From Candidatus Saccharimonadota bacterium (GTDB lineage: Bacteria > Patescibacteriota > Gracilibacteria > Absconditabacterales > Absconditicoccaceae), in assembly GCA_965231145.1 (NCBI GenBank), contig OZ246420.1, positions 600,001 through 632,000 of the forward strand: a DNA stretch of 32,000 nt, given 5' to 3'. A program made the translations under genes and the position numbers. Under the pieces are notes generated by a model that saw nothing but the letters and a program-made list of their open reading frames with translations, did no database searches and was not told the origin of the DNA. Every line of letters starts with the position of its first letter. Within the stretch, counting starts at the first letter, position 1. Below, one piece after another: positions 4,868 to 32,000 of this stretch.

Positions 4868-4885
4868 GGAGAGACACATAAAGAA

Positions 4886-4903: not shown

Positions 4904-4926
4904 ATTCCTTTTTCCGACAATTACAA
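4899..4926 (-). promoter_or_regulatory. Putative lexA promoter
   Basis: Minus strand TTGTAA (4926-4921), N16, TATAGA (4904-4899). The -10 is embedded in the SOS box. Confidence 0.4.
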
Positions 4927-4955
4927 GACCAATCGTTCTATTTTATACCGTTTTC

Positions 4956-5201: not shown

Positions 5202-5208
5202 AATTCGA

Positions 5209-5610: not shown

Positions 5611-5635
5611 AATTATCTATACATTAAATAAAATC

Positions 5636-9158: not shown

Positions 9159-9163
9159 ATTAC

Positions 9164-9967
9164 TTACTTTTCATAATGTAAATTCTTTAAGTCTTTAACA
9201 TTATCTTCCGAAGCAATAATTAAATACAAAGATTCAGCTATTCATTTTTTTATAACCCCAGGAGCTCATCAATATGTAATAATTTTAGGGTTATAAGCAC
9301 GAGGATCTTTTACACAAACTATTCATATACAATACGGAATATGATCTGGTGTTTGTAATATTTGTAAAGGAATCTTTCAATATTTAGGATAAATTTTATA
9401 AGAATTATTTAAAATATTTTTGTTTTTGAGAATATGAAATCATTCTACAACATAATTATACTTATTATTCTTCTTTGACAAGTCTATAATTAAGCCTTTT
9501 TGAATTAACATATAGTTTTTACTCAATTGTTTCTCATCAAACAAGCTTATAGTAGGTAAATCCTTCAATATCTCAATTCATATATTAAATATGAAGATTG
9601 GACCTCAATCATTTGTAGATGATAAAAGATTATAAGACTCAATACTTAATCATTTTGCTTTATTAGCTTCGTCAAATCATGATAAAATTCAATATCATGA
9701 GATTTGTGCCTTTCATGATATATGATGTGATATCTTAGGTTTAAAAACTTCGATTTTGTATGTATGTTTATCATCTCTTTTCACATTACATGTTTCTTCA
9801 CGTCACATATTCATTGGTATTCAAATCTTTGTAGCAATATATTTATGATCTCTATCTAACACATCATTAATATAGTATGATCAATCTGATAGATATCAAA
9901 TATTAAATAATCTATAAGTATTATTTTTATGATTCAAACATATCCTATAACATAAATTGTTCTTCAT
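9164..9967 (-). CDS. Orphan protein (267 aa) encoded between hsdS and hsdR
   Basis: 268 codons in very AT-rich DNA with no TAA/TAG and about 20 TGA=Gly. The gap to the hsdS stop is 11 nt and the gap to the hsdR ATG is 5 nt. No domain recognised and no P-loop. It is absent from the ORF track. Confidence 0.6.
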
Positions 9968-9978
9968 CTTATTCTATG

Positions 9979-11142
9979 TTAAATAAACATCTTCTGCAAC
10001 AAACCTTTCTTCCAAACTTTCATCTTCTCTATTTGCTCCTCTACTTTTTCTATTTTCTTATCAAGAGCAGAAAGGGAATTTGCTATCTTTTGTTGCTCAA
10101 TTATAGAAATAGGGTATGGGATGCTTTGCTCTGTCACTGTTCACTTTGAGAGACCGATTTGAGCCGTTCAGTTAGCTTTTTTTCTAAATGACATATTAAT
10201 TTCATAACTATTAATTACAAAGAACAGATATTTTATATCAATACTGATATTAGTTAGTTGATATACATGATCTCAGCAAATATATTTATTATTTTCTGGG
10301 ATTTGTACTACTTTCCCTATAATATTTCCTCATCCAATATCATCCTTTGCCATTACAAGATTAGATATAGATAATATATCACCATCAAAGTTTGTCTTCT
10401 TATTAGGAATCAATCTATAATTACTGCCTATAGCTCACATATCAACGATCACATATTTACCTGTATCTTCTATATACTTACTTTTTGATCAACATGAAAT
10501 CACATCACATATTTTTCATAACTTTGTTCTTTTTCGCTCAGAAAACCCTTTCCCCTTCTCATCCCTAAAACGGATTTTCTGACTAAAAATTAGCTGTATA
10601 ACTCACTTTTTATATCTTTCTAATTGTTCTTTTTTCTGAGAAAGTTGTTGGATTTTCTGTTCAACTATGGAAAAGAATTTGGCTATTTTCTTCTGTTCAT
10701 TACTATCTGGCATATGAATAGACAAGCTCTTTAACTGTCAACCCGTTATTAGAGGTTGTCCTGATCAAAAAACTAGCCTATTTAAAACATTTTTTATAAG
10801 AACTATATATATGTAATCTATATTTACATCCTTTTTAAGCCTTAATATAAGGGCATTATCAGATACTCAATATTGTCATTCAACTTTATAAATAAATCAT
10901 GCATTAGCTCATACTCTCGCGATTAATATATTTTTTCATTCATATTCAAAAGATTTTGACAATCCTAAAACACCTGTTGAGCCATAAATATAATATTTTC
11001 CACTTTCATTTGATTGAGTTCATGATCTACCAGATGATATCGATTCAGCGACTGCTTCGAGCCTTATTTTTTGCCATTGTCAATTAAACCCAGGAAAACG
11101 AAGTGTAGGAATAATGTTTTCTGCCTTTACCGCCTTACTCAT
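9979..11142 (-). CDS. hsdS: Type I R-M specificity subunit (387 aa, two TRDs)
   Basis: [20 protein letters not shown][G]QW.., ..VF[G]SGQPLIT[G]GQL.., central [21 protein letters not shown][G][12 protein letters not shown], ..AN[G]TAQIGLSK[G]TV.., C-terminal [30 protein letters not shown]. About 17 in-frame TGA. No ORF appears in the track. Confidence 0.92.
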
Positions 11143-11257
11143 AGGAAATTACCATAATATAAAGGATTTGCATTTTTGAGTATTTTGTTTATTATCATAG
11201 TGTATCACCACAAAAGGGCTCCAAAAAGTGTTAGTACTTGAGGAAACCCTTTTTTTG

Positions 11258-11785
11258 TTATGTTAAATGTTTCTTTTGATAGCTTATCTTGTCTTGGGCG
11301 TTTTTTAAATAGTAATAATAAGTATTTCCCAATTTATTATACAGTGACGAATGATTAGCATTTGGAAATATAATCTTTTCAAAAACTCATTTCTTAATAA
11401 GGTAATCTACTACTTTCTTATAGTCACCATCTCATGAAACTAAGACCATCTTATTCCATGTACCCTTTGGATCATCTATCAGCTTCTTCATCATAGAAAA
11501 TACTATATCTACATCTACGTTGCCTTTTTTCTTCCCCTTAAGCGCTGAGGTATGTTCCCTAAATGACATGATAAATCATGCTTTTTGTATGTTATCATAT
11601 AAGTCTTGCTCACTTTCATCAACACATCCCAAAAAATAATATGCCTCCTCTATCTGGAATTTATCCTTTAGAAAGATTCTAAATTTTTTGAAATCTATCG
11701 CTCGTCATTCTGACTTTATTCATAGATGTAAATTCTGACCATCTATAAAAGCAATATTATATAATTTGGGAGTTTGTTGAGACAT
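11258..11785 (-). CDS. NYN/LabA-like (PIN-fold) ribonuclease domain protein (175 aa)
   Basis: ..LYNIAFIDGQNLHL[G]IK.., ..KGNVDVDIVFSMM.., ..MVLVS[G]DGDYKKVVDYLIKK[G].. match the NYN acidic motifs. 176 codons open with 6 TGA=Gly. Confidence 0.75.
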
Positions 11786-11801
11786 GTGATGAGAGTTTAT
11801 A

Positions 11802-12149
11802 TTAAATAGGTAATATTCCTAATTTAGTTAGAACCCATAGAATTAACCAACTCACGACAACGAGTATTAAGTACAAGCAAAAATATATGATCGACCTTTG
11901 GGTCGGGCCTTTTACTGTATGTTTGTCGCTTATAATACCTACTATTATATAGCAAATAAGCCATAAAATGGTATAAATAGAAATAATTTGTCCAAATATC
12001 CATTCAATCGTTTTATTTGCAAAAATTGGAAATTGTTCTATTGTCATATAACAAATCCATATGCGTATTATAAAACTCAAACGACTAATTATTGGATACA
12101 TATTAATAATGTTAGTAAGCTTTTTATTTAAAATGGACTTTCTATTCAT
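11802..12149 (-). CDS. Small membrane protein (115 aa, about 3 TM)
   Basis: Track ORF. Hydrophobic helices: LSFIIRIWICY, IISIYTILWLICYIIVGII, IIYFCLYLILVVVSWLILWVL. The ATG overlaps the recoded hsdM 3' end by 22 nt. An alternative start is at 12101. Confidence 0.5.
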   Translation of the reverse strand: MNRKSILNKKLTNIINMYPIISRLSFIIRIWICYMTIEQFPIFANKTIEWIFGQIISIYTILWLICYIIVGIISDKHTVKGPTQRSIIYFCLYLILVVVSWLILWVLTKLGILPI

Positions 12150-13702
12150 AATTCTTTACAAAAATCTGTAATTTTATGATCAATTTCTACTATTTGTTTT
12201 TCAATATCTTTGATCTGTTTTGCTACCTCATTTACATCAATCTCCTCTTCATCTTCAAACGTATCCACATAACGAGGAATATTTAAATTATATTCATTTT
12301 CTTTCACTTCATCGAGCGTTGCGATATGGCTATATTTATCTGTTTCTTTTCTTTCTCTATAAGTAGAAATGATCTTCTCAATATCCGCATCCCTCAGCTT
12401 ATTTTGATTTTTGACTTTCTCAAAATGCTGACTTGCATCTATAAATAAGATATTATCGGTATGAGTACGGCACTTTTTAAACACTAAGATACATGTCGGG
12501 ATACTCGTCCCGTAGAAGATATTAGCCGGAAGTCAAATAACAGCATCTAGATAGTTTTTTTCTTTTATAAGGTATTCGCGGATATGTCATTCTGCTCCTC
12601 CGCGAAACAAGACGCCATGAGGCATAACAACCGCCATCGTTCCATTGTCCGCTAAGTGATAGATCATATGCTGTATAAATGCATAGTCTGCTTTGCTACT
12701 TGGAGCAAGTCTACCATACTGAGAAAACCTCTCATCACTCAGGTGAAGTTGATTCGCGCTTCGCTCAGCAGAGAAAGGCGGATTAGCTACGATAGCTTCA
12801 AACCTTTCATGCATGTGCTGAGGATGCTCAAGGGTATCTTCTTGTTGGATACTAAACTTACTATAATGTACTCCATGAAGGATCATGTTCATACGAGCAA
12901 GGTTATATGTTGTATTATTAAGTTCTTGTCCATAAAATTTTCCAACTTCTTTTACCTCTTTCGCCACACGTAAAAGCAACGATCCTGAACCGCAGGTAGG
13001 ATCATAAGCCGACTTAAGTTTTGTCTTTCAGGTAGTAACAAGCTTTGCAAGCACTTTAGACACTTCTTGCGGCGTATAAAACTCCCCCGCTTTCTTCCCT
13101 GCTCCACTGGCGAATTGCCCTATAAGATATTCATATGCATCACCCAGCACATCTATTTGTGCATTCTCCAACTGAAAGTCTATCTTATCAAGATAAGACA
13201 GTACTTTTGCAATGATTGTATTTTTTTCTTTTTCTGTTTTCCCAAGTTTTTGAGAAGTCAAATCAAGATCAGAGAAGAGATTACTAAAATCATCCTCGCT
13301 ATCCGTTCACATGGTACTATGTTCTATGCTATTAAGAATTTTCTGCAGATCTCCGATGATGAAATTATCTTCTTTTTCTGACTTAGCATTTCCTCTCTCA
13401 GCTACCACATGAAAAAGCTCAGAAGGCTTGAGGAAATATCCGAGACTATCTAACGCCTCTTCTTTTATAGCCTTAAGCATATCTTTGCCTTTCTTAGAAC
13501 TTTCATCAATATCTTCATATGCCATATTGCCATCATTTTCCAATATTTTATTTGCATACAGATACATTTTCTCCGAAAGATACTTGTAGAAAATGAATCC
13601 TAAAATATAGTCACGGAACTCATCAGCATCCATCCTTCCACGCAAAGTATCAGCAATATTCCATAGTTGAGTTTGTAGTTGTTTTTTCTGTTCTTCAGAC
13701 AT
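12128..13702 (-). CDS. hsdM: Type I R-M N6-adenine DNA methyltransferase subunit (524 aa)
   Basis: MSEEQKKQLQTQLWNIADTLRG.., ..GDAYEYLIGQFA..AGEFYTP.., YDPTCGSGSLL, VANPPF, ..FRGGAE[G]HIREYLI..AVI[G]LPANIF. Four track ORFs share one frame. The TGA at 12146 is read through to TAA at 12128. Confidence 0.95.
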
Positions 13703-13741
13703 ACAATAGACCACTTTATATGTAAAGCAAATATAGATTTT

Positions 13742-13769
13742 TTTATATGTATAAGAGCATCTATTGCAA
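13742..13769 (-). promoter_or_regulatory. Putative promoter of the hsdM array
   Basis: Minus strand TTGCAA (13769-13764), N16, TATAAA (13747-13742), about 40 nt upstream of the hsdM ATG. Confidence 0.35.
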
Positions 13770-13835
13770 GTCACATATCCATGATAGTTTCAAGTAATAT
13801 ATAGAATAGACTCACTTAGTTCGATCTTTAAATTA

Positions 13836-13863
13836 TTGACATCCCACTCTAAATCCCTAAAGT
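13836..13863 (+). promoter_or_regulatory. Putative promoter of the 13889 gene
   Basis: TTGACA, N16, TAAAGT, 25 nt upstream of the ATG. Confidence 0.35.
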
Positions 13864-13888
13864 CTAGCCACACTAAAACACAACTCGT

Positions 13889-14494
13889 ATGAAAAAAACA
13901 CTATCAATACTGGCCTTCCTTATCATAGCTATAGATTGCTATGCGCAGGTCGCCTCTACATCGACTCCCGAGGAGACAGGCCCTATAGCAGTTTTTTTAT
14001 CTGCTATCGGAACTATACTCATCCTTGCTTCAGGGATAGTCGATATCGCTAAAAAATGGAGTACTTTCCGGCAAACACTCTTTCTCATCCTTATCCAGGC
14101 ATTTGGTGTTGCCATACTCCAATCTCACATCCCATGGGGGTTTCTTATATTTGGACTTAGCTGCTTGCACACGATCGTATTTGTTATCTATCGTATCCGT
14201 GAAAGCATCAAACCGCCCACTGCTGAGGAAGAAAATGATGATGACTTGGAAGAAAGCTATGACTATCCACTGATGTTAAAAATTGCTCAGGAGGTACTTG
14301 ATGAAAACCAGGTAGTCTGGGAAACAAAAGAGGAGCTCAAAGATTTCTTGCGTTACCATTATGACCAAACTATCAAGTTTCGCTATATGGAAGCACAGGA
14401 TGTGCCTCAGGTATACATCATACACTATGTAGAAGGACTTATCGTCAAACTGGCCGACAGTATCCATATGCTTAAGCAGCAGCCAACAACGTAA
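13889..14494 (+). CDS. Hypothetical membrane protein with signal peptide and acidic C-terminal domain (201 aa)
   Basis: Intact track ORF. MKKTLSILAFLIIAIDCYAQ signal-like N-terminus, about 3 TM, EEENDDDLEE linker. No TGA codons. Confidence 0.6.
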   Translation: MKKTLSILAFLIIAIDCYAQVASTSTPEETGPIAVFLSAIGTILILASGIVDIAKKWSTFRQTLFLILIQAFGVAILQSHIPWGFLIFGLSCLHTIVFVIYRIRESIKPPTAEEENDDDLEESYDYPLMLKIAQEVLDENQVVWETKEELKDFLRYHYDQTIKFRYMEAQDVPQVYIIHYVEGLIVKLADSIHMLKQQPTT

Positions 14495-14520
14495 TATACT
14501 ATTTTACCACATCGTAGTAT

Positions 14521-14546
14521 CCCTCTGAACCCAGAGGGATTTTTTT
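14521..14546 (+). terminator. Rho-independent terminator
   Basis: ccctctg-aacc-cagaggg followed by a-ttttttt. Confidence 0.65.
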
Positions 14547-14613
14547 ATTATGCAGCCATTGAAATGTAGCTTTGGATCGTTATACTTTCCGGACAACAAA
14601 AAAGACAAAACGT

Positions 14614-15003
14614 ATGAAACGATTAATGACTATTATTCTCTTACTTACACCTTTGTGCTGTTTTGCAGCAACCCAAACTACTACTGCCATTCCAGCCGCA
14701 TCAGAAAACACGAGAGAAGTTGACTTCTGGATAGGCGCTTTGGTTGGCGTTCCTCTTTTTATCTTGCTTTCCAAACATTTTAGGAAAAACGTAAGAATTG
14801 GCATGGGAGTAGTTTTTGGCATAACACTGACTTTAATAGCAGTTAGCTGTTGGCATGATCCAGCGCATGTGCGCTATCGGGGAGGATTTTCTCTCCTATG
14901 GATAGCGCTTGTTATTATAATAAATTACTTCACCAATAAATATTATAAAAAGGGTGATTTTAGTGAAGATATCCATCTGCCAAACATTGCGGCAGACGAG
15001 TAA
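14614..15003 (+). CDS. Hypothetical membrane protein with signal peptide (129 aa; alternative start 14572)
   Basis: Track ORF. MKRLMTIILLLTPLCCFAA signal-like segment, then about 3 TM. No TGA codons. Confidence 0.55.
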   Translation: MKRLMTIILLLTPLCCFAATQTTTAIPAASENTREVDFWIGALVGVPLFILLSKHFRKNVRIGMGVVFGITLTLIAVSCWHDPAHVRYRGGFSLLWIALVIIINYFTNKYYKKGDFSEDIHLPNIAADE

Positions 15004-15024
15004 GTCTCTCAAACCCATGACATG

Positions 15025-15051
15025 TTCCCCTGTTTTAGGGGAATTTTTTTT
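15025..15051 (+). terminator. Rho-independent terminator
   Basis: ttcccc-tgtttt-agggg-aa followed by T9. Confidence 0.65.
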
Positions 15052-15053
15052 AT

Positions 15054-15075
15054 AAAAAAACCGCCCGGAGGGCGG
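15054..15075 (-). terminator. Rho-independent terminator of the TspO-like gene
   Basis: ccgccc-gga-gggcgg at 15061-15075, followed on the minus strand by a T-run at 15060-15054. Confidence 0.65.
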
Positions 15076-15097
15076 CGTTTCGAGAAGGTATAATAAT

Positions 15098-15736
15098 TTA
15101 TGAAAGAAAAGCTGTTAACGCTCAGATCAATGCCCGAAACGAGAGAAGAAGCGCCATAGGATTGCGTCGTGCGCGCCATGAGAAATACGTTACGATAACA
15201 CCAATAGCCAATGCGCAATATGCCCGGAGAGACGAAAGCGCAAATGCTGGGTTGAAGAGATAGATAAGGATAGAGACGCTGAGAACCGTAGTCGCCATGC
15301 TGATCCAGCCATAGTAGGCTCCAAATGCTCGTCGTCCAAACGTATGTTGCATGAGGTTTTTCCTGTACTTGTCGAGGATGAACATAAGAACAAGCATGAT
15401 GAGTGCAATGATGATGACGGAAAGTACATATATTTCGCGGCTGGTAACTATGACCCAGGCGATATTGAGAAGCGATGTCAGTGCAAAAAGCCAGGTTATT
15501 TTTTTATGATATTTCTTTCCAGAGAAAAATCTGATAAGGATAAGGATCATGGTCACTCCAAGCATGACGAAGATGAGCCCCCATGCAAGCGAGAAAAAAA
15601 GACCAGCAGGCATATACGGAAATGGAAAGACCTCTCCGAGATTTGCGATGCTGCCTCATAAAATGTCTCATGTAGCACCAAGATAATTGAAATAATACAC
15701 TCCGAGTAACAGAAGCAATGCAACGATAGCTGCCAT
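15098..15736 (-). CDS. TspO/MBR-like tryptophan-rich membrane protein (212 aa)
   Basis: MAAIVALLLLLGVYYFNYLGAT[G]DIL[G]GSIANLGEVFPFPYMPAGLFFSLAWGLIF.. resembles the Firmicute-type TspO-like N-terminus (NYLGATG ... PAG.aFsIWg). Track ORF 15122-15613 extends at both ends through TGA. Confidence 0.5.
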
Positions 15737-15918
15737 CCAAATAAACAATAAAAAATAAAAGATAAGAAATACAAAATATCACCTACAAGCTATATGTATA
15801 TGAAAACAAATTGCAAACAAAGGAGCATAAAAAACAAGACAGGATGATGATAATTTTTATTTTCCGAACATATCCGAAAGTAGTCTTGCAATAGCATTGC
15901 ATATCTCTATTCTATTTC

Positions 15919-15930
15919 AGAACATGTTCT
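15919..15930. promoter_or_regulatory. 12-bp perfect palindrome AGAACATGTTCT upstream of the DUF134 gene (candidate operator)
   Basis: GAAC-N2-GTTC, immediately followed by TATAAAAT and 23 nt upstream of the ATG at 15953. Confidence 0.25.
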
Positions 15931-15952
15931 TTTTATAAAATACTTGATACCC

Positions 15953-16267
15953 ATGAAAGCGGGAAGAAAAAAGAAATGCAGAGTGATCGACTTTGACACA
16001 AATAGGATGGTATGTCACTGTTTCGGCCCCACAGCGCTCTCCAAAAAAGAGTTACATCTTTTACCGAAAGAGAAACTATGAACTGACGAACTCCAAGCAC
16101 TCATCTATCAGGACATAGACGGATTAACCATGTTGGCAGCCGCAAAAAAGATGGGCATCTCAAAAACAGTATTTGCAACGATCTATACATCTGCAAAAAA
16201 CAAACTTATCAACAGCATCATCACACCCAAAATATTAATTATCGAATGCGAAGAAAAAACTATTTAG
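15953..16267 (+). CDS. DUF134 (UPF0251) putative DNA-binding protein (104 aa)
   Basis: MKAGRKKKCRVI..FGP....LL..EKL[G]TDELQALIYQDIDGLTMLAAAKKMGISKTVFATIYTSAKNKL.. matches the DUF134 layout with a sigma-70 region-4-like HTH. Confidence 0.7.
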
Positions 16268-16285
16268 CTTATATTATTCTAGCCT

Positions 16286-16594
16286 ATGGAAAAAATCACC
16301 TATGAGCAATTTGCTCCAACTATCTCATCAGGAGTCGTTATCGTCGATTTCTTTGCAGAATGGTGTCCCCCGTGTAAAGCGCTGACGCCTGTATTAGAAA
16401 ACTATAAAGTAATATATGGCGATAAAATTAAGATCGTCAAAGTAGATGTGGACGAAGAACAACGTCTTGCAATGCAACAAGGGATCACTGCAATGCCTAC
16501 CCTACAATTTTTCAAAGACGGAAAGCAGGTTAATATGGTAAGAGGGTTTGACCCAGCGGGTATCATGGCAGCTATAGACGCAGCGATTGCATAA
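16286..16594 (+). CDS. trxA: Thioredoxin
   Basis: Intact track ORF. VVDFFAEWCPPCKALTPVL..MPTLQFFKDGK. Confidence 0.92.
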   Translation: MEKITYEQFAPTISSGVVIVDFFAEWCPPCKALTPVLENYKVIYGDKIKIVKVDVDEEQRLAMQQGITAMPTLQFFKDGKQVNMVRGFDPAGIMAAIDAAIA

Positions 16595-16611
16595 AAAAGC
16601 TAGAGGTTTCT

Positions 16612-17064
16612 CTAAAGCGTAATTTCATGTGGAAGATCCCATGAATGTCCATCTATGATCCTTATCCAGGTAGGAGTGATTTTATAAAATGATCTGAAAT
16701 CATAATTTTCTGCTGCTTCCTGAGCCTCACCTTCGTCTTTCGCAGGAAATTTATCATAGAACGCTTTCATAGCACTGCTACCATCTTTCACTTCAAAAAG
16801 CTTACATACTCATTTTATTTGTAGTCCGCTTACAACATTGTCCGTTACCTCTTCTGGAGTATAAATACATACTGATACCTCGGGATGCTTTTCTATATTT
16901 TGTGCATGTTTTCTTTGAGGCCTCGACACAAAGTAGAGATTCCCATCTTCATCTGCATAGTAATGCAAATTACATACATCCACCCCAACACCATCTGTTG
17001 TCGCTAATGCCAGAATCTGATTATCTTGTAAAAAAGCACGCAGTTGTTCTTTGATGTTCATCAT
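16612..17064 (-). CDS. Pyridoxamine 5'-phosphate oxidase-family FMN-binding protein (150 aa)
   Basis: ..ILALATTDGVGVDVCNLHYYADEDGNLYFVSRPQRKHAQNIEKHPEVSVCIY.. split-barrel pattern. Track ORF 16810-17064 continues through one TGA=Gly to TAG at 16612. Confidence 0.65.
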
Positions 17065-17193
17065 TGAGATTTATTAAAAATAAATATTTTCTCGCACTAT
17101 AGTAGTTTCATGCATAATTACAACGGTTTCCTGTCGTCATACAAGGGATAGAAATAAGGAGAACAAGATTTGCATTAATGAAACACAAAGACA

Positions 17194-17221
17194 TTGACAA
17201 GATAAAGAATAAATATAAAAT
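17194..17221 (+). promoter_or_regulatory. Putative promoter of the 17245 gene
   Basis: TTGACA, N16, TAAAAT, 23 nt upstream of the ATG. Confidence 0.4.
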
Positions 17222-17244
17222 CATGATTACAAAAACAAAGCTGT

Positions 17245-17775
17245 ATGAAAATAAATTTAGTATTACTCGTTCGATGGCAAAACGGACACTGTAGCGTGCC
17301 GCCTATGGATGTAGAGGTAGATGTCTCCGTTAACGCTATTCCTTTGCTACGGGAAATTGACTCCCATATACATGGACTCGCCTCGCGTAATGAACAGAGA
17401 GGAACTACCGGGACTCCTGGTAGCGGCTCAAGCTTTTCCTATGGGCATAAGGCAAATGTCTTTGGGCACCACAGTAACCAATTCTACTACCATACTTTGT
17501 ATGCAGCATGTGGTTTGTTACAACTCGGTGATACAACTATGTCGTTTCCCCTGAACGTATGGGATGACGCAAACATTGAAGAACTTGTTGCCGACATCTC
17601 CTCTGCTATAAATGCCGCAGCAAGTGATATGGGACTACACAACGACCGTCCTGCACAGGTAGATCTGTATCTGGATATTAGCGAAAAATACAGAAACATA
17701 TCGCTTATAGAAGCACTGCAAAAACACTATGGTGAAGCGCTCCGTGTAGTAAGACACCAGCCAGCAAACGCATAA
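17245..17775 (+). CDS. Hypothetical protein (176 aa), no recognisable domain
   Basis: Intact track ORF with its own promoter-like and terminator signals. Visibly GC-richer than its surroundings. No TGA codons. Confidence 0.5.
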   Translation: MKINLVLLVRWQNGHCSVPPMDVEVDVSVNAIPLLREIDSHIHGLASRNEQRGTTGTPGSGSSFSYGHKANVFGHHSNQFYYHTLYAACGLLQLGDTTMSFPLNVWDDANIEELVADISSAINAAASDMGLHNDRPAQVDLYLDISEKYRNISLIEALQKHYGEALRVVRHQPANA

Positions 17776-17798
17776 TTGTATCTTATTGAAAATATTAA

Positions 17799-17828
17799 AG
17801 AGAGAGGGATCTTCCTCTCTCTTTTTTT
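17799..17828 (+). terminator. Rho-independent terminator
   Basis: aagagagaggga-tc-ttcctctctctt followed by ttttttt. Confidence 0.65.
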
Positions 17829-17889
17829 ATTGCCTTTTTATCCGATTTAAGTAAATCAAAAAATAGTATTTTATATCTCTCGCTATACT

Positions 17890-20586
17890 ATGAAACATAA
17901 AAAAATCCTGACGTGGTTTGCTATGCTTGCATGAGCAAGTACGCTTGCTATTATGAGCATAGTACATGCTGCAAATCTAAGCACCAACCTTACGTGGTGT
18001 ACGGCAAATTCTGGCTCGATCAATATTTCTTATACAGAGTGTCAGTCTCTTGCCTATCTCTACCATGAAACAAGTGGAGACAACACCTGGGCTGCTACAG
18101 GAAATTGGTTTTCGAATACTGATGTCAGCCTGTGGAAATGATGAGATGGAACTAACAGCGGAAATGCTATGGTTATCTCAGGATGACATATCATAAGCCT
18201 CTCCCTCTCCAACAACAATCTGCGAGGAAGTATCCAAAGTGGTCTTGTGGGACTTACGTACTTAAGCTGATTAAATCTCTTCGACAATAGTCTTTTCAAT
18301 GTAAACACCTCCTGAATGTCCGCTCTCAGATCTCTCAACATAGGCTTCAATGCAAGCTTTTCTTGAGACTTCACATACACGACAGGCCTCAAGTATCTGA
18401 GTGTCTACTTCAATAATTTCTTTTCTGACAAGCTTAGTTCATTGATCGCTCCCCTTCACGATCTCGAATGGCTGCATGCATGGAACAATATATTATCCGG
18501 TGGACTTGATGTTTCGACGCTCACAAGTTTAAAAATCCTTGAACTCAATGAATCCTCTCTCTCATCTATCGATCTTTCAAACAATACAGCCCTTACCAAT
18601 CTCGCTATCAATTATAACAATCTTACCTATCTAGATATATCTCACAATCCTCTCCTCTCCTATGTTACTGCAGAATACGGTTTACTAACAGGTGTCAAAT
18701 TGGGCAATCCTATAGCCACCGAAATGTACTTCTGATCTAATAGTATTACCTCTATAAATCTATCCGGAGCAACAGGTCTACAATCTATTAGAGTCTCAGA
18801 CAATCAACTTTCATCCATCAATATCTCTAGCAATCTTGCGCTCGAAGGCTTAGATATACAAAATAACAACTTCACATATATCAATCTTACCGGCCCAAGT
18901 CTTATGAGTCTCAATGCACAGGGAAATCAACTTACCGGTATCGATCTCAGTGGAGTCCCACTTATAAATTATTTGAACCTTAGTTCACAAGAAGGATCAG
19001 GACTAACGACACTCGACATATCAAATAACACCCTTCTCTGACAACTTCTTGCAAGCGGCAATAGCATAGAAACTATCATCTCTGCTCCTGCATGATCATA
19101 TGGTTCATTAACAGTATTTGATGTGAGCGACAATCCTCTCTCAGATGTGACAGATATAAACGCCCTCTCGCTCTTATCATCACACAATCAATATACAAGC
19201 GTCTGAAATTTCACCGGAACTGCGCATGACACTGCTGTCAGCATCGAATGGACGAGACCGATTGACTATGGTTACTCATGAGACTTATACAAATATACAG
19301 CCAGACTGGATACAGGCAGCGCTATAAACATATCATGATTATCTACTACAACATATGTTATTACCGGACTCACCAATAGTCAATCATATCTTGTAACACT
19401 ATGTGCAGTATATAGCACTACTTGAGCTGACAATGCAATATGTGAAAGCGTTACACTTACTCCAGAATTATCAGTGTGTCAACCAGGGAAAACATTGTAT
19501 ACTGGTGGTGCATTCCCCGAATGTATCCCCTGTATGGCAGGGACATTCAACAGTCTGATCGACGGAGCATGTATTCCAGCACCTATGTGATATTTCATAG
19601 ATAACTCAGGAGCTACCGGAGCTACACTTTGTCCTCCAGGTACATATGGAGACACAACAGGAGCTACTGCATGTACTCCAGCAGAGCAAGGATATTTTGT
19701 CCCAGATTTCTGATCGCAATCAGCTATAGAGTGTGAGCCTGGATCATTCTCAAATACAACATCTGCTAGCGAATGTACTCCAGCGACTCCAGGATATTTT
19801 GTAAGCGGTTATGCAGCTATCGAACAGACAGCATGTGGTCCAAACACCTTTACTGATAGTGCTCATTCTACTTCATGTACTCCTTGTCCTACTGGTTACA
19901 TCAGCAATGCCGGAGCTGCTATATGTGTTCTGCCTAGTAGTGGAAATGGCGGTGGAGGTGGTGGTTGATTAACTTCTTTCATACGCAATCCCCTTACAAC
20001 TGTACCGGGTCAACTACTGAATATTGTTGTACCTACTATAACGAAGACCACTCAAAAGACAGAAACCAAAAATGATAATATAGATCCATCGGTTGACGAA
20101 GCATACTCATTTTGATTTACCTATGGCCTTACTACTCTTGCAAAAGAAAAAGCCAGACTCGATGATGGACTCAATAGATTTGAGCTAGCGAAAATGGCCA
20201 GCGCATTTCTTAAGAACGTCTTATGAAAAGATCCTGTAGAAAATCCTTTGTGTGATATTAGTAAGTTTCAGGATTATGAGACTTTTGATAGCGAGATGAA
20301 GACATATGTGAAGAAAGCATGTGAGTATGGTCTTATGGGCTGGAAAGGAGACAAGAAAGCTATACTGGACAGCTTTAATCCATTTGATTCTGTTACCAGA
20401 GAACAATTTGCTACTACTCTCTACAGAGCTCTCTTCCCACAAAATAATGAACAAGTATCTTCACTCTTACAAGCACTCAACAAAGCAGGCATTATCCGCA
20501 ACATATCAACTCCTGAGATGTCAGAGATTAGATGATATACTCTGCTTATGTTTCAAAGAGCTGCGGCGTATGGTAGTAAAAAATAG
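17890..20586 (+). CDS. Large secreted surface protein (898 aa): signal peptide, leucine-rich repeats, FN3-like domain, Cys-rich ephrin-receptor/GCC2_GCC3-like repeats, Gly linker, C-terminal SLH-like domain
   Basis: 899 codons open with about 25 TGA=Gly. Track ORFs 17953-, 18442- and 20248- share its frame. MKHKKILTWFAMLA[G]ASTLAIMSIVHA is the signal peptide. L..L.L..N.L repeats span about 18190-19190. ..VSIEWTRP..YKYTARL..TYVITGLTNSQSY is FN3-like. C.PG.Y...C..C..G.F repeats span 19441-19935. ..FNPFDSVTREQFATTLYRAL is SLH-like. Confidence 0.8.
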
Positions 20587-22674: not shown

Positions 22675-23547
22675 TTATAGAAAAGAAAACGCTTTTTTGA
22701 AACCTTGTAGATGCAAATCCACATCCTTCTTTTTTTCTATTGCATCTATTAAACCAAAGATATGCCTTCTTTTTTCATAAAAAAGAGACCTTTCTAGGAA
22801 ATTATCTGTTTTTATACCGGTATAGCAGCTGTACACTCCTTTAACGAAATCCTCTCCGTATTCCCACAATAGATCAAAATCCAAGGCAGAATCTGCTATT
22901 CTTGCGTCTGAAAAATCAATCACGCCAGATAACATGCGTGTATCTGGATCAAATATTATATTTTTACCTTGAATATCTCAGTGAGTTATGGTTTTATCTG
23001 GGTAATCAAAGTTTGCCAGATCAATTATATACTGATTTACAAGTACAATCTCCTCTACTGAAAAATATTGACTGCATGCATTTGCAAAATTAGTTTGCAG
23101 TTCACTAATCCATCAGCTCATATCCCCATTCTCTCCACTCTTATATCAGATCGATGCTAATTCTGACAACGGAATACCATGAAGTTGACTAAGAAATTTG
23201 CCCAATTGAACCTGTATACTCTTCTGATCAGTAGGTGATAACTTATTATACTCCTCCACCATAAAAAGGTTTCATTTCACAATTTCATAACCAACATATT
23301 CATATGTAGAAGAAATATACGAATACTGGGGAATAGAAAGCGTTACATATTTACCTACAAGAGACAAAAGCTCCTTCTCTTTTCTTAATACTCCCTTCAC
23401 ATACTCATTTCTTGGAAACCTGAAAACTATCTTATCGTCTAAGATAATAATTTGGTTATCCCAACCCGTATCAATAAACACATAGTCTTTTCGTACAAGA
23501 TTAGGATAATCTCTTTGGATAATCTCTATCAGCTGTTCTTTTGTCAT
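22675..23547 (-). CDS. Aminoglycoside/macrolide phosphotransferase-family (APH) kinase (290 aa; alternative start 23559)
   Basis: ..IVFRFPRNEY.., ..TITH[G]DIQGKNIIFD.., ..LSGVIDFSDARIADSALDF... Track ORFs 22675-22935 and 23272-23559 join in one frame through 5 TGA=Gly. Confidence 0.85.
23457..23547. repeat. Repeat copy B (intact APH 5' coding end)
   Basis: Partner of 21705-21795. Confidence 0.7.
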
Positions 23548-23627
23548 GATAGTCGACACTATAGATAATAAGATATTTATTGCAATTATATCTAGATATT
23601 AAGTCCGTAAAAATATATAGTAGAGAT

Positions 23628-25352: not shown

Positions 25353-25589
25353 TTGATCTTAATACTAAAAGCGAAGGGGCTGGAGAAGTCATTTGGTTCA
25401 CAATTATTATTTAATGACGCTAGTCTTACTGTTTGAGATGCAGTAAAAGCAGGACTAGTGGGCATTAATGGTAGCGGAAAATCCTCGCTTTTAAAGATCT
25501 TAGCTGGTGAAGACAAAGACTACAAAGGAGAGATTTCATATGAAAATCTATGAACAAAAAACTGATGTATATATTGCAGAATGGCTTAA
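25353..25589 (+). pseudogene. Truncated ABC-F paralog (first 65 or so codons only)
   Basis: TTG start, then ILILKAKGLEKSFGSQLLFNDASLTV[G]DAVKAGLVGINGSGKSSLLKILAGEDKDYKGEISYENL. ABC-F similarity is lost near 25548 and the frame ends at a TAA at 25587. Confidence 0.65.
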
Positions 25590-26220
25590 TACCAATGGTT
25601 GGGTAAAAAAAGTTTGAAACAAAGAGTCTAAGGCGAATAATAACAAACTACGTGCTGTATGGAAAGACCCTTTCTATTATGGGAAACTAGTAGTTAAAAA
25701 TTATTCATCCGATCAGACAATAGATAATCCTCACTATAAACCTATGATTACGTTTGCTGAATATGAGCTCCTACAAAGTCGTATGGAAGGAAGCAAACCC
25801 AAAGACATTCAAAAGAAAAGAAAGGATGAACTACGATCGAAAGTTTTATCATACCAAACCCCTTCTACTCTTATTTGATTATGCAAGTTATTTGGGGAAT
25901 CTATTGCAGAAATAGAACATACATATCATAATCAATGATCTACATCATTAATTTTAAAAAATCCTAAAGAGGCAAAATATATCTATAGAACAAAGGAGAT
26001 TGCTGACTATTTATATGACCTTGATTGAACAACTATTAATACTGTATGAATGTATCTACATGAACAGATAGAATTAAACCATACTAATTGATTAGACAGG
26101 AAGAAAATGTATCAGGTAACTCAAAAACCTACTTATACAAATGCAAAAAACATTATAAAACATTACAGTCAGAACGACATTTTAGAAGTATTTTCTGATG
26201 AAATCACAGATAATATTTAG
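25540..26220 (+). CDS. ORF (226 aa) with an N-terminal large-serine-recombinase 'recombinase' domain-like segment and no catalytic domain; probable remnant
   Basis: ..IAEWLNTNGWV...LRAVWKDPFYYGKLVV....PHYKPMITFAEYELLQSRM.. resembles PF07508-type blocks. The rest is unassigned with HTH-like stretches. 227 codons open with 7 TGA=Gly. Confidence 0.45.
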
Positions 26221-26922: not shown

Positions 26923-27071
26923 GCTATTTAGGAAATAAGAGATAAGAATATAATATATACGCATACAACAAGATTTTTCTAGCTATACTTTTTAGCTTGC
27001 CATTATCATTGCTATAACTATAATTTAGCTAAGACTATATTGACATATTATTTATATATATTCTCTTTACA

Positions 27072-28046
27072 ATGGCAAAATCTATATCTTTACTTTTTAA
27101 TAATGAGTCAGAGATACTAAGTCAATTTGAAGAGTTAAAAAATAATAAATTAAATGAATTATTAAGATTGGAAATTTTACGCACCATCTGAACATCTACG
27201 ATAATTAATTATATATTAAAAGAACTATCAAATATAGACTATCATACTTTCACTGAACAAATCTTACCAAATATTGTTATAAGCGGAGCGGGAATGATAA
27301 AAATCAAGCTTCTAACTCATCCGTTTGGTAAAATACGTTTACATATTTGGCCAAGCGATTCTCTACCTTTAATGTGAAAAAATCTATGAGGCAACTGTCA
27401 TATTCATGATTTTCAGGCATATTCTCATGTGCTTTCTTGAGAAATATACGAAGAAAGTTTTAAAGTTTATAAAATGACTGAAGAAGAAAATAAAATATAC
27501 TCAATCTTTTTAAAGAGAATTTTAGGACTTGATATTATCAAACAAGAAGATATTTCAAATATTCTAGAATGAATTTTTATTTGAAAAGAAACATCCAATC
27601 ATTTTATTGATATATTCTGCCATGAATTCAATATAAAGCCTTATATGCTTGCTCAACGACACACTTTTTTTACATGAGAAAGATATGTTAACACAGAAAA
27701 TAATCCTGTGGAATCCTTTCAAATTCATGGTAATTATAACTTCGAGCTTATATGAAAAAGAACTATTTTAGCATGAGAAGCATATTTCTTGCCGATAGAA
27801 CAATGACATAGAATTTATACAAATTGAGATACTATGACTTTTTTTGTAACTGACACTTCATATAAACATGGAGCAATTCCAGATAACGGACATACGTTAC
27901 TAAATGGTCATGGCAAAAGGTATCCTCGAAAGCAATTACTTTTAGAATCTAGAAATAGTGATTGATATAATCTAGAAAGTAATGTTATATATGAAACGGT
28001 TAAAAATATATGTAAGTCTACTCTAAAAAACCTAAACAATCTGTAA
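27072..28046 (+). CDS. Hypothetical protein (324 aa) with cupin / cysteine-dioxygenase-like His motifs
   Basis: 325 codons open with about 17 TGA=Gly. ..IRLHIWPSDS...CHIHDFQAYSHVLS[G]EIYE.. and ..A[G]EAYFLPIEQ[G]HRIY... Confidence 0.5.
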
Positions 28047-28276
28047 GTTAATTTGCAATTATACAAGTAAGGAAAGTTTTCCATGTGTATATTAAGCTTT
28101 TCTGAAGCGATAATGAAGTTATCAGCAATCTTACAGAAAGACAGCAGGTAATATATGGTCTAAGTGATTAACTACCCTACCTCATTGGTATAGCTTAGCG
28201 ATATAGGAACATATGTTGATATATGAAAGCAAGCAATTAAGCTATATGAGTCTTTTATAAGATCAGCATTATAGCT

Positions 28277-28993
28277 ATGGCAGTAGATATATCTAAATTC
28301 CTTAATCAAGAGGATGCAATAAAGTACATTATAGAAGAGATTAGATGATGAAGAACAAAGAATTACTGATATGACTTTCATCTACGTCAAACACTAGAGA
28401 AACGAGCATGAGAGAATACACTCAGAATAGGAGAAGAAAAATATAAGATCGTAGAATTAGCTTCTCCATTATTTTATGATGCTCTATGGGAATTATGTAG
28501 CATATGAGTTTTAAGACCTAGTATTAGAGTATTTAATACTCAGTCTACTGATGAATGAAGTGCTTGAAATGGGTATGCAATTACTGCTTTTTGAAAGACA
28601 TGGCTATCAGAGATTGACTTGAAAAAATTTATACCAATGGATCCATCTAGATTTGGCGAAATGCTTGAGCCATATGGCAAGAAATTTGGTCTATGATTTC
28701 AACAAAGAGCTAATCAAGCTATACTCTGTTATAATTGTCATGCCTATTTAGCTTGCTGTGTTATGTGCGGTGCAGCCGCAGAGTCAATTCTGTTACACTT
28801 AGCGATTCAAAAAGATGGCAATGAAGACAATATATTAAAAAAATATCGTGCTGGAAACGGCAGAAAAACAATAGAAGATTTCATATTACATAAATTAAAG
28901 TGATGAGCAACAAAAGAAACAGGAACAGATGAGAAGTTTGCAAAACCAGAGAAACATCATGGATGGCAAATACAAAGATTTCTTAACTGTTAA
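28277..28993 (+). CDS. Hypothetical protein (238 aa), no recognised domain
   Basis: 239 codons open with about 13 TGA=Gly. Contains a Cys/Ala-rich helix, ..CYNCHAYLACCVMCGAAAESILLHLAI... Confidence 0.5.
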
Positions 28994-29510
28994 TTTATGA
29001 GGGAGAAGAGATACTCAAGAAGAAAAAGCATATCAAGAGAAAAGAAATAAGCAACAAGCTATTCTTGATAGAATTGACAGAGATATAGATAAGCTCAAAA
29101 ATGACGATAGAAGTTATATTGATGAATTTGAAGCATTTATTGGCGTGTTTAGAAATGCCTCTGCCAGATTCAAAAAACTCACTTTTGTTCGAAAGAGAGA
29201 ATTTACTCAATTCTTCATTTCGAACATCAAAATTAACCGTTCTAAGAATATTCAGATAACCGTTTTCCCTTATGTTGAAGCCATTTTCAAAGACAAAAAT
29301 TCAAAAACAAAAAAATATCACCCGTGAGCGATATCTTTTGGAGCTCCTGAACCGCATGAATTCGAACAAATGTATAAAAACCTAGTTAATATACCTATTA
29401 TGCAGACTAGACAGCTTTTTAGTCTATATATTAAATATATTGCGAAAAATGATGAAATCACCAAGCATCTATCTAAAAAGCAATTGGTACTATATGGATT
29501 AAATGAATAA
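28929..29510 (+). CDS. ORF (193 aa) resembling the C-terminal coiled-coil/tail of large serine recombinases; probable remnant
   Basis: ..QQAILDRIDRDIDKLKNDDRSYIDEFEAFIGVF......REFTQFFISNIKINRSKNIQITVFPYV... The start is uncertain (frame open from 28899) and overlaps the previous gene. Confidence 0.35.
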
Positions 29511-29553: not shown

Positions 29554-29940
29554 TTAATGTATTTTTTTAAGAATATCTCCTAAATCTTGTGGTCTGAATT
29601 CCACCTGGATAGTTTCCAGATTGAAAAAACCACAATCTATGACTTCTGTTCCAGAAACCTTTGATAAGTCAATATTATGAAATTCTTGAGTATTTTCGAT
29701 TTCATACCAGAAATCAATTGTAGTTTTATCTTCTCCAGTAAACTCATTTATATAAAGTAACTTTCAGATAACAGGTTCAATACCTACTTCTTCAAGAAAT
29801 TCTCTCTTAAGTGTTTCTTCTCTTGTTTCACCAGGTTCTAATGTACCACCTGGGAGGCATAAAAAAGAACCATCACCACATAAGAATACTTTATTAGTCC
29901 CCTTTTCAACGATTACTCCTCTAACTTTGATTTTAATCAT
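29554..29940 (-). CDS. NUDIX hydrolase (128 aa)
   Basis: Nudix box LPGGTLEPGETREETLKREFLEEVG. The ATG overlaps the upstream kinase stop (ATGATTAA). Confidence 0.85.
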
Positions 29941-31006
29941 GACTATCTAAGTAAGTATAAATATTGTCTCACAATGGTAAATCTATAATATTTATAGAAG
30001 TTTTAGATCGATCAAGTACTTTGATAATTATATTATACAACTTGTTTCTATCCTCAAGTTTATATTCAAGAATGTTTTTAATCCCTAAAAACCTATATAT
30101 AAGTCTAGAGGCGAATTCTTGTTTCCATTTCCAGTCTGGTTTCTTTTGCAACCCTATACCTATAAGAGTTATCATGAGTGTATTCTGGAACAAATGGAAT
30201 ATAGTATTTTGTTTATCAATATAGTCTTTCGGATCTTTCAATGTTCCAATAAATCATTTTCTATATATAGGGAATAAGTATGATGATTGGAGTGCTAAAT
30301 ATCGGTAATAAGTGGCAAAGTCAGAAAGAATAGGATTATATCAAACCGTAGCAGCATCAAAGAAGCATATACTTTGATAATTTCAATTCTTAATCTTTAT
30401 TGCATAATTCCAATCATGTATATCTCAATGATTTAAGGAGAATAGAGTTTCATTTATATCATATTCCATAAGTTCTAATATTTGCTTTTTATAGTTTGAA
30501 CTTACTTCTTTCATATCATTCAATAGACCTTCAAAATTTTCACCATAAAAACTATATAATCTTCAATTATCCTTCCTTGTTTCGTAAAGGACTCTTAAAG
30601 GGTAATTTTCAGATGAATTAAGATGGATTGAAGATTGGTGACCCTCTTTTAACTTGTCAAAAATCTGAGAATATACTTGCTCTACATATTCTACTGAAAA
30701 TGTAGGATTAGCTATAAATTCAGCTCAGGTTATTCGTCACTCATCTTTTCTCTTATATTCATAAACTAACAATACTTTACCTTCCATATGGAATTGTGCC
30801 TCAAGTTGAGGTAAATCAATCTTAGTTTTTGCATTATCTAAATTAACAGCTTCACTCTTTGCCTCCTCAGGAGAGAGCAATTTAAAAAAAACATCCTTTA
30901 GATGAAATTGTCATTTTCAGTAAATACTATTACTTGAATATACAATTTCCTCAATCTTTATGGAAGTAGCATTCTCTATGATTTCTTTAAGATATTCACT
31001 ATTCAT
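29933..31006 (-). CDS. Phosphotransferase-family (APH/ChoK-like) kinase (357 aa)
   Basis: ..LFSLNH[G]DIHDWNYAIKIKN[G]NYQSICFFDAA.. (Brenner HxDxxxxN plus D motif). 358 codons open with about 13 TGA=Gly. The ATG overlaps the upstream gene stop (ATGAATAG). Confidence 0.7.
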
Positions 31007-32000
31007 ATAATGTAATAAATTCTTTAAATGCATCTTTTACCATCTCTTCTTCACAATTTCTTTCGATTCAGTGTACTCCTAATCTTTTAAGTAGAATGAA
31101 GCTTAATTCTCAATTAGCACTTATTTTATCTTGTTGTAAAACATTCTTAATAGTTTCCCAACTAAGCGCTATGCGCTTATGTTGATTTGGATTTAATCAA
31201 TAAAGCCATTTTTTAACGAACTCTAATTCGGAATTCTGATAAATTTTTACAGACAAATCTAGAGACATTAATATTCCTGTCATAACCGCATCACCATGCC
31301 TTAATTTATAAACTAATGTTTCTAGTACATTTGCAAATGTGTGGCCTAACGAGAGTCCCTTATGGAGTCCAGTATTATCAAATAAATCTGGTGCAACAAA
31401 TGAATACTTCACTTCTAAAGATTCTTTAATCATACTACACCATTGTTCAAAGTTGTCGTCGTTAACTCCATCTTGAATCAAATTAAAATATTTAGTTCCT
31501 TTTTTTATAATAAAATCTGAATCTTCATATTTAATTAATAAATGTTTTATAATTTCTGAAAATCAAAGGATACGCTCAGTCAAAGGCAAATTCTTTATAT
31601 AATTAATGTTACAAAATATTACTTCAGGAGAGCGAAACAAACCAATCACATTCTTATAACTACCTAAATTTACACCAACTTTTCATATAACTGCATCACA
31701 CTGAGACATTACTGTACTCGGAACTTGATAGAATCATATTCATCTCATATACATACCTGTAGCCACCCCGACAAGGTCTCCAACATAACCTCCTCACATT
31801 GCTAAAACACAACTTTTTCTATTAAGTCCAACTGAATGAAAATATTCCAAAAGAAAATGCACAGATAATAAGTTTTTAGTTGTTGTATGAGCATCAAGTA
31901 TCATTTCTCATGCAAATTTTTCTTTTAATTCACTAGAAAATATGCTAGATATTTCTGCTCAGTTACTTGATCGAAATTGTTTATCTACTACCAATAAGAC
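30999..32000 (-). CDS. 3-dehydroquinate synthase-family sugar-phosphate cyclase (5' end beyond the window)
   Basis: ..AM[G]GGYVGDLVGVATGMYMR[G]I[G]FYQVPSTVMSQCDAVI[G]KVGVNLGSYKNVIGLF.., ..LSLGHTFANVLE.., ..HGDAVMTGI... Frame open from 32000 to TAG at 30999. Confidence 0.85.

Follow-up and report, generated by a model that had tools for sequence, protein, structure and literature searches.

A dehydroquinate synthase-like subfamily with an altered substrate pocket lies in a conserved accessory gene cassette of CPR and DPANN organisms, possibly a non-shikimate sugar-phosphate cyclase pathway

Why should a reduced genome carry a gene of the 3-dehydroquinate synthase (DHQS) family together with genes for a kinase and a NUDIX hydrolase, rather than beside genes of the shikimate pathway? 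The question was raised by positions 29554-32000 of a 32,000-nt stretch (hereafter the window) from Candidatus Saccharimonadota bacterium (GenBank assembly GCA_965231145.1, contig OZ246420.1, positions 600,001 to 632,000; GTDB order Absconditabacterales), where an original prediction had seen three coupled minus-strand genes and a possible cyclitol-phosphate pathway. We found that the first gene belongs to a small DHQS-like subfamily, hosted mostly by bacteria of the candidate phyla radiation (CPR) and DPANN archaea, in which three residues of the substrate pocket are exchanged and which lies in a recurring gene cassette. On balance we lean towards a cassette that encodes a non-shikimate sugar-phosphate cyclase pathway leading to a phosphorylated or nucleotidylated carbasugar.

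Under the standard bacterial code (table 11) the region held short open reading frames (ORFs) only, and reading TGA as sense on the minus strand gave three long ORFs with 10, 10 and 1 in-frame TGA codons. When the cyclase was aligned with standard-code homologues, its TGA codons coincided with three columns at which 19/19 of them have Gly and with three further columns at which most of them do. From this placement it follows that the genome uses code 25, in which TGA encodes Gly; this is the code of Gracilibacteria and Absconditabacteria. The low G+C content (GC, ~0.30) is consistent with it, and no tRNA genes were found in the window. For the closest homologue (P0001, a Logan gene call), the public protein sequence was translated with TGA as Trp and reads AMWWGYVGDL at the motif that lies at 31773-31796 in the window. 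Mistranslation of this kind degrades homology searches.

With code 25 the two predicted 8-nt overlaps between the three genes were exact to the nucleotide (Table 1). The cyclase gene runs on past base 32000, where about 34 residues of the N terminus are encoded. An alternative in-frame start of the kinase at 31033 would give an overlap of 35 nt instead of 8, and the 8-nt pattern ATGA[AT]TA[AG] was seen again at three junctions of the closest relative of the cassette, locus L001, so we regard it as a conserved coupling feature. The cyclase/kinase junction of L001 has the same overlap geometry (ATGATTAA), and its kinase/NUDIX overlap is identical to that of the window. No terminator-like site was found downstream of the NUDIX gene.

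The first gene was confirmed as a member of the DHQS family. Both of its Pfam domains were present (N-terminal DHQ_synthase, PF01761, 1.2e-27; C-terminal DHQS_C, PF24621, 5.8e-18), its best PDB matches were bacterial DHQS (1.5e-35), and the expected GGG..GDL, KN.IG and HGDAV motifs were all located. However, it scored 198.8 bits against TIGR01357, the equivalog of AroB (EC 4.2.3.4), below the cutoff of 305, and full-length members of its subfamily (204.1, 244, 288 and 211.7 bits) were all below that cutoff as well. Active-site residues were then compared with the DHQS fingerprint in Aspergillus nidulans DHQS numbering, using a reference sequence that matches PDB 1DQS exactly. All 13 canonical AroB proteins and 1DQS have R, N and H at positions 264, 268 and 275, whereas 16/16 subfamily members examined carry R264H, N268S and H275N, a combination seen in 0/13 canonical AroB. 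The replacement of the second His by Asn in the LN.GHTFGHAIE block, which the original prediction had pointed out, is one of these three family-wide changes. Structural work on DHQS places R264 at the carboxylate of 3-deoxy-D-arabino-heptulosonate 7-phosphate (DAHP) and N268 and H275 at the phosphate/C7 end, with H275 implicated in catalysis. The metal ligands E194, H271 and H287 were kept in 16/16 members; the seven other contacts R130, D146, K152, N162, K197, K250 and K356 and the NAD-binding glycine motif (GGGxxGD in AroB) were also kept. Further differences from AroB are a one-residue insertion before the signature block and the changes GGK to GK and DKK to DK[IL]. Judged by these residues, the comparison showed a DHQS-fold enzyme in which cofactor, metal and phosphate machinery is intact and the substrate pocket altered.

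To delimit the subfamily, an exhaustive profile search was run over 1.84 billion representatives. About 50 clusters with the signature [HQ]..LS.GHT..N ranked at the top, and canonical AroB started at ~270 bits. In a neighbour-joining (NJ) tree built with the signature block masked, the 82 signature-bearing sequences formed one clade free of canonical AroB in 77/100 bootstraps. Two 'intermediate' DHQS-like proteins, P0058 and P0070, have Gln264 with Asn268 and His275 retained and fall inside or adjoin the subfamily clade; they may be evolutionary intermediates. Another protein among the top matches to the subfamily profile, P0071, is 2653 aa long, with residues 1197-1528 forming its DHQS-like domain.

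Of 185,579 species genomes scanned, 9 carried the signature. Its hosts were Patescibacteria (Falkow-, Nomura-, Parcu- and others), a metagenome-assembled genome (MAG) with recoded TGA and the label Peribacteria, one archaeon of the Woesearchaeota and a single gammaproteobacterial MAG. Another 61 loci came from a motif scan of metagenomes, and dereplication left 58 loci for neighbourhood counts. No subfamily member was found in IMG/VR (viruses), INPHARED (phages) or PLSDB (plasmids), where the only matches were canonical aroB at <=32% identity. The literature that we searched contained no description of the subfamily or the cassette. We see it as a further branch of a known superfamily rather than a new kind of system.

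We next looked at the gene context, with 67 canonical AroB loci from the same scan as a control. Within 4 kb of canonical aroB, genes were found for chorismate synthase (35/67), shikimate kinase (26/67), 5-enolpyruvylshikimate-3-phosphate synthase (22/67), shikimate dehydrogenase (9/67) and DAHP synthase (8/67). In contrast, a 7-kb radius around the 58 subfamily genes took in 432 ORFs, and no match to the aroC, aroK, aroA, aroE or DAHP synthase families was among them. The cassette is predicted to be unrelated to aromatic amino-acid synthesis, as had been expected from its kinase and NUDIX partners. Two findings would have spoken against the original prediction: a cyclase that groups with bona fide AroB while shikimate genes are present, and a His-to-Asn change that is common in functional DHQS. 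The separate clade, the 0/13 count in canonical AroB and the lack of shikimate neighbours in all 58 loci give the opposite picture on both. A divergent but genuine AroB of a fast-evolving reduced genome would explain why the best Pfam, NCBIfam and PDB matches are all DHQS. Such an enzyme is hard to reconcile with the score under the equivalog cutoff, with three DAHP-pocket residues that are changed throughout the members examined but in none of the canonical AroB proteins, with the separate clade that never lies beside shikimate genes, and with the patchy spread over CPR, DPANN and one gammaproteobacterial MAG, and we find it barely credible. The cyclase is, as far as residues, tree and context allow a prediction, not AroB.

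The subfamily was also compared with the cyclases of secondary metabolism. Its profile matched bacterial DHQS in the PDB at 197-215 bits, DOIS (2D2X) at 168, DDGS (5TPR) at 123.5 and the EEVS ValA (4P53) at 120.5. Since DHQS is closest, the cyclase is predicted to be a neofunctionalised offshoot of bacterial 3-dehydroquinate synthase that stands outside the known secondary-metabolism cyclase clades. The second-best NCBIfam match, at 142-229 bits, was TIGR04425 ('AroB-related putative sugar phosphate phospholyase (cyclizing)'), which is likewise an uncharacterised AroB offshoot. However, the subfamily is far under the 400-bit cutoff of TIGR04425, and P0010, the sole relative that prefers this family, keeps the canonical R/N/H.

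The middle gene had been called an aminoglycoside phosphotransferase (APH)/choline kinase (ChoK)-type kinase, and we accept it as a probable divergent small-molecule kinase of this type. Taken alone, the window protein matched Pfam APH below threshold (E = 0.011; 15.9 bits vs a gathering score of 23.2). It had no detectable homologue in a single-sequence search of 5.8 billion proteins, and a profile search returned three proteins only. As a family, six of nine members matched APH (best 4e-5), three matched EcKL and one ChoK, and the family profile found amicoumacin kinase in the PDB (E = 0.0056). The beta3 Lys, the HxDxxxxN loop and the metal-binding Asp expected of such a kinase are all present: Lys42 is invariant in a 9-member alignment, and the catalytic Asp D195, the metal-binding Asn N200 and D217 are invariant in a 7-member alignment. 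An AlphaFold2 model of the orthologue P0030 was poor (predicted local distance difference test, pLDDT, 43), and its confident part was an N-lobe-like beta-sheet plus helix only. The window also contains a second, bona fide APH-family phosphotransferase gene (22675-23598, minus strand; Pfam APH 8e-16); its likeness to the cassette kinase was limited to the catalytic loop, the only part that hhalign aligned with the kinase family, at low and insignificant probability.

The third gene proved to be a NUDIX hydrolase gene, as had been proposed. Its product matched Pfam NUDIX at 1.1e-12 (48.6 bits vs a cutoff of 21.1), contains a complete Nudix box that matches GX5EX7REUXEEXGU, and has MutT-type nucleoside triphosphate (NTP) pyrophosphohydrolases as its nearest PDB relatives.

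It had been suspected that more pathway genes lie upstream, where the operon runs off the window, and locus L001 agreed with this. The L001 gene order is NUDIX, a 632-aa fusion, a NodU/CmcH-type carbamoyltransferase (CarbT), the DHQS-like gene (DHQSL), the APH-like kinase and NUDIX. In the fusion protein, a Pol-beta nucleotidyltransferase (NT) is joined to two P-loop nucleotide-kinase-like domains. The window cyclase is 82% identical to its L001 orthologue, the kinase 51% and the NUDIX protein 72% (to L001 NUDIX_B), and blastn gave no nucleotide-level match between the two cassettes. We predict that the three genes of the window form the 3' half of an accessory operon with six genes or more.

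We then counted neighbour families over the 58 loci by domain hidden Markov models, as de novo single-linkage clustering over-merged the fusion proteins. The most frequent neighbours were NUDIX proteins (38/58 loci), NTs (32/58) and P-loop kinases (26/58), followed by HPrK-like P-loop proteins (20/58), APH-like kinases (17/58), haloacid dehalogenase-type (HAD) proteins (9/58), CarbT (7/58) and an adenosine-deaminase homologue (ADA; 6/58). Among the 19 well-flanked loci, NUDIX was found in 17 and NT in 15. Eleven of these loci have only the APH-like kinase and seven only the HPrK-like protein; none has both, and the one locus with neither is frameshifted. Such non-homologous replacement speaks for phosphorylation as an integral step of the pathway.

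Four architectures were distinguished. Class I runs ADA, NUDIX, tandem kinase, NUDIX, APH-like kinase, NT, optionally CarbT and HAD, and DHQSL; the window and L001 have a rearranged form of it. Class II consists of a methyltransferase, a nucleoside diphosphate kinase (NDK)::kinase fusion, a NUDIX::GT2 glycosyltransferase fusion, NT and DHQSL, followed by a convergent HPrK-like gene. Class III has DHQSL, an HPrK-like gene, a methyltransferase, an NT-like gene, a TIM-barrel gene and NUDIX. Class IV has DHQSL, two APH-like kinases, a Cof-type HAD, a phosphoribosyltransferase (PRTase)-like protein and a glycosyltransferase (GT). The variable partners are thus carbamoyl-, methyl- and glycosyl-transferases, phosphatases and the adenosine-deaminase homologue. 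The gene for the last heads class I operons (L008 229-1149; L009 3071-5432) and scored 105 bits, well below the equivalog cutoff of 216; L009 also has a PurD-like ATP-grasp gene.

From this conserved partnership we infer the following order of steps. The DHQS-like enzyme would accept, instead of DAHP, a neutral sugar phosphate without the DAHP carboxylate. NAD+- and metal-dependent transient oxidation, beta-elimination of phosphate and re-reduction would follow, probably ending in an intramolecular aldol closure to a carbasugar (cyclitol). The APH-like kinase, or the non-homologous HPrK-like P-loop kinase in other versions of the cassette, would phosphorylate the product, and the Pol-beta-type transferase would nucleotidylate it. 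Tailoring would be carbamoylation in the version seen here, and methylation or glycosyl transfer elsewhere. The NUDIX hydrolases may cut nucleoside-diphosphate (NDP)-linked intermediates or by-products, with the nucleotide kinases regenerating NTP. The end product might serve as a bioactive small molecule or as an envelope decoration.

The experimentally established route to GDP-valienol for acarbose comprises an EEVS, the kinases AcbM and AcbU, the HAD phosphatase AcbJ, the nucleotidyltransferase AcbR and the pseudoglycosyltransferase AcbS (PMC9200736). The cassette shares with the GDP-valienol route of validamycin and acarbose the logic of cyclase, kinase, HAD phosphatase, nucleotidyltransferase and transferase (PMC9200736). 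Its cyclase also belongs to the same superfamily as EEVS (ValA/AcbC), EVS, DDGS and DOIS (BtrC), and carbamoyl-, methyl- and glycosyl-transferase tailoring is common to both. This part of the proposed EEVS/DOIS/DDGS-style pathway held up; the suggested sequence affinity did not, with DHQS being nearer. The partner enzymes are non-homologous as well: GDP-valienol-type pathways use ROK/sugar kinases and RmlA-type nucleotidyltransferases, whereas the cassette has an APH-like or HPrK-like kinase and a Pol-beta NT, with NUDIX and nucleotide kinases as integral parts. The known pathways are hosted by actinomycetes or cyanobacteria, the cassette by CPR and DPANN organisms. No aminotransferase was present among the genes of the L001, L003, L008 and L009 cassettes, all of which were assigned, so the 'aminocyclitol' label of the original prediction has no basis and was dropped.

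Several points weigh against the carbasugar pathway. The subfamily is nearest to DHQS and is placed with no known secondary-metabolism cyclase. The kinase assignment is built on sub-threshold matches and motifs, and the structure model was poor. The upstream half of the operon was inferred from L001, outside the window. The substrate cannot be deduced from the sequence. Pol-beta-type transferases normally O-nucleotidylate hydroxyl groups and are not makers of NDP-sugars, which is why the step to an NDP-carbasugar is an analogy only. In addition, the tandem nucleotide kinases, NDK, the adenosine-deaminase homologue, the PurD-like ATP-grasp protein and the PRTase-like protein would be explained equally well or better by a nucleotide substrate.

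Among characterised proteins, the cassette kinase, NT and CarbT are most closely related to APH and amicoumacin kinase, ANT(4')/AadA, and TobZ/NodU, all of which act on hydroxyls of sugar-like or cyclitol-like small molecules. The NT profile matched kanamycin and streptomycin nucleotidyltransferases (4e-4 and 1.5e-3), and CarbT resembles NodU. With antibiotic-inactivating enzymes as the closest relatives of kinase and NT, and a second APH gene elsewhere in the window, one could imagine a resistance, detoxification or salvage module in which the APH-like and ANT-like proteins inactivate an exogenous aminoglycoside- or cyclitol-type toxin that the DHQS-like and NUDIX proteins degrade or recycle. 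We consider this highly improbable. The resemblance is distant (E = 1e-3 to 1e-5 for kinase and NT), resistance genes normally stand alone and not in conserved operons of 6-9 genes with a cyclase core, and the ring-forming or lyase reactions of the DHQS family are in effect irreversible.

Glycosyltransferases appear in some versions of the cassette, as the NUDIX::GT2 fusion of Class II loci and as GT1/GT4-like genes in L086 and L103, and methyl- and carbamoyl-transferases are common in glycan tailoring. These genes would fit an NDP-activated unusual sugar or carbasugar that is attached to the CPR/DPANN cell envelope as a surface decoration, with no free metabolite. The version in the window and L001 is without a glycosyltransferase, however; genes for a flippase, a polymerase or a membrane anchor do not recur, and a general envelope function would call for a far commoner family than one found in 9 of 185,579 species genomes. 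We therefore regard surface decoration as quite unlikely.

The surroundings of the cassettes were also examined for signs of mobility and defence. In the window, a serine-recombinase fragment of the large serine recombinase type, with the 'Recombinase' domain only, lies at 25504-26220 (plus strand) and is probably the remnant of an integrative element. In L032 an intact large serine recombinase gene lies directly upstream of the DHQS-like gene. In the standard-code relative L003 a Pycsar pair (3310-4636), made up of a PycC cyclase (PADLOC 3.5e-95) and a PycTM effector, lies upstream of the cassette at a distance of 1 kb. In L086 a UvrD-like helicase gene on the same strand (1627-3465) ends 2 nt before the DHQS-like gene, and a Shedu SduA nuclease gene (10593-11849; PADLOC 5.8e-135) lies ~2 kb downstream of the cassette. 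These contexts and the patchy phyletic spread point to an accessory island acquired by horizontal transfer, but are no proof of a role in defence. Searched with PADLOC-DB v2, the cassette matched no described system: generic NUDIX (PDC-S07) and NT (PDC-S09) models were the only hits, and the cyclase, kinase, CarbT and HAD proteins had none.

Could the DHQS-like enzyme instead act directly on a nucleotide or nucleotide-like 5'-phosphate, with no carbocycle formed? A nucleotide 5'-phosphate has the same HO-C/C-H/CH2-OP geometry, and the first three steps of DHQS correspond geometrically to oxidation at the 3'-OH, loss of the 5'-phosphate by elimination and re-reduction. This would yield a modified nucleoside or nucleotide, perhaps an antiviral compound or a signal. 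Such a substrate would account for the abundant nucleotide-handling partners: Tmk-like/CoaE-like tandem P-loop kinases, the NDK fusion and MutT-like NUDIX genes are pervasive, the A_deaminase homologue heads class I operons in six loci, and a PRTase-like motif is found in L086 and L092. The kinases, NDK, NUDIX, the adenosine-deaminase homologue and the PRTase-like protein would then manage the nucleotide pool, and the known defence genes beside two cassettes (PycC in L003, SduA in L086) would suit an antiviral product. On the other hand, the literature held no precedent that we could find for a DHQS-family enzyme acting on nucleotides, the retained K152, N162, K250, K197 and D146 are the contacts that bind the pyranose polyol, adjacent defence genes occur in only 2 of ~19 well-flanked loci, and neither a PADLOC system match nor a member in the viral, phage and plasmid collections was obtained. 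We thus judge direct action on a nucleotide to be unlikely, while the partner genes point to nucleotide chemistry at least as much as to classical cyclitol tailoring, a side of the cassette that the original prediction had under-appreciated.

The cassette could also be a 'chemical weapon or immunity' module exchanged among ultra-small CPR and DPANN organisms of reduced metabolism, in which a new DHQS-derived enzyme would make a carbocyclic or otherwise phosphate-eliminated sugar that is then joined to a nucleotide, and the carbocyclic nucleoside- or nucleotide-like product would be used against phages, hosts or competitors. We rate this as rather unlikely; if true, it would add a new branch to sugar-phosphate cyclase chemistry and be the first dedicated bioactive-metabolite pathway typical of CPR/DPANN.

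The carbasugar pathway, which we prefer, has its own consequences. The DHQS/sugar-phosphate-cyclase superfamily has a handful of characterised reaction types (DHQS, aminoDHQS, DOIS, EEVS, EVS and DDGS), and each new type opened a natural-product class. Our results define a further clade of this superfamily, with a fixed three-residue pocket change and a conserved modular gene partnership, found almost only in CPR/DPANN organisms. These organisms are thought to be without most biosynthesis, and to our knowledge essentially no specialised metabolism is known from them. Mutually exclusive unrelated kinases and swapped tailoring enzymes resemble the evolution of biosynthetic gene clusters. The standard-code versions (L003, with the cassette at 5607-12746, L008, with the cassette at 229-8335, and L009) can be expressed directly, so that the question of the product is testable now. 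Automatic annotation would call the subfamily genes aroB and wrongly credit reduced genomes with a shikimate step, and public gene calls with TGA as Trp or stop hide operons of this kind.

Table 1. Coordinates of the cassette genes, their junctions and motifs, and of the restriction-modification locus in the same window.
Feature	Coordinates	Strand	Remarks
DHQS-like sugar-phosphate-cyclase homologue (predicted), H264/S268/N275 subfamily	30999..32000, runs off window	-	333 aa in window, 10 TGA (Gly)
Divergent APH/ChoK/EcKL-type small-molecule kinase (predicted)	29933..31006	-	357 aa, 10 TGA
Small NUDIX hydrolase	29554..29940	-	128 aa, 1 TGA
Cyclase/kinase 8-nt stop/start overlap ATGAATAG	30999..31006	-	cyclase stop TAG / kinase ATG (reverse complement)
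Kinase/NUDIX 8-nt stop/start overlap ATGATTAA	29933..29940	-	kinase stop TAA / NUDIX ATG (reverse complement)
GGGYVGDL motif	31773-31796	-	cyclase
KNVIG motif	31641-31655	-	cyclase
Subfamily signature block HKGLSLGHTFANVLE	31320-31364	-	H(264), S(268), metal ligand H(271), N(275)
RHGDAV motif	31284-31301	-	cyclase
beta3 Lys, VFFKLL	30875-30892	-	kinase; Lys42
Catalytic loop HGDIHDWN	30407-30430	-	kinase; D195, N200
DFG-like FFD	30347-30364	-	kinase; D217
Complete Nudix box GTLEPGETREETLKREFLEEVGI	29779-29847	-	regex match
M48/DUF45-like peptidase	5636-6328	-	translation read
hsdR	6321-9194	-	translation read
267-aa ORF	9164-9973	-	scanned: no Pfam or PADLOC match
hsdS	9979-11148	-	translation read
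NYN-domain protein	11258-11818	-	translation read
hsdM	12128-13900	-	translation read

The rest of the window was inspected as well. A link between the Tgt gene (1184-2365) and the cassette was considered and dropped, as the gene is 27 kb distant and never recurs near the cassette. Convergent to the cassette, three plus-strand ORFs of 324, 238 and 193 aa (27033-29510) had no Pfam match and one marginal PADLOC match (PDC-S26, E = 7e-4). A Type I restriction-modification locus occupies 5636-13900 on the minus strand, its genes being assigned by reading the translations (Table 1). The region 14000-20000 has a GC of 0.39-0.43, compared with 0.27-0.33 in its flanks, and a gene at 17851-20586 within this GC-rich part encodes a 912-aa leucine-rich-repeat-like surface protein with 20 TGA codons.

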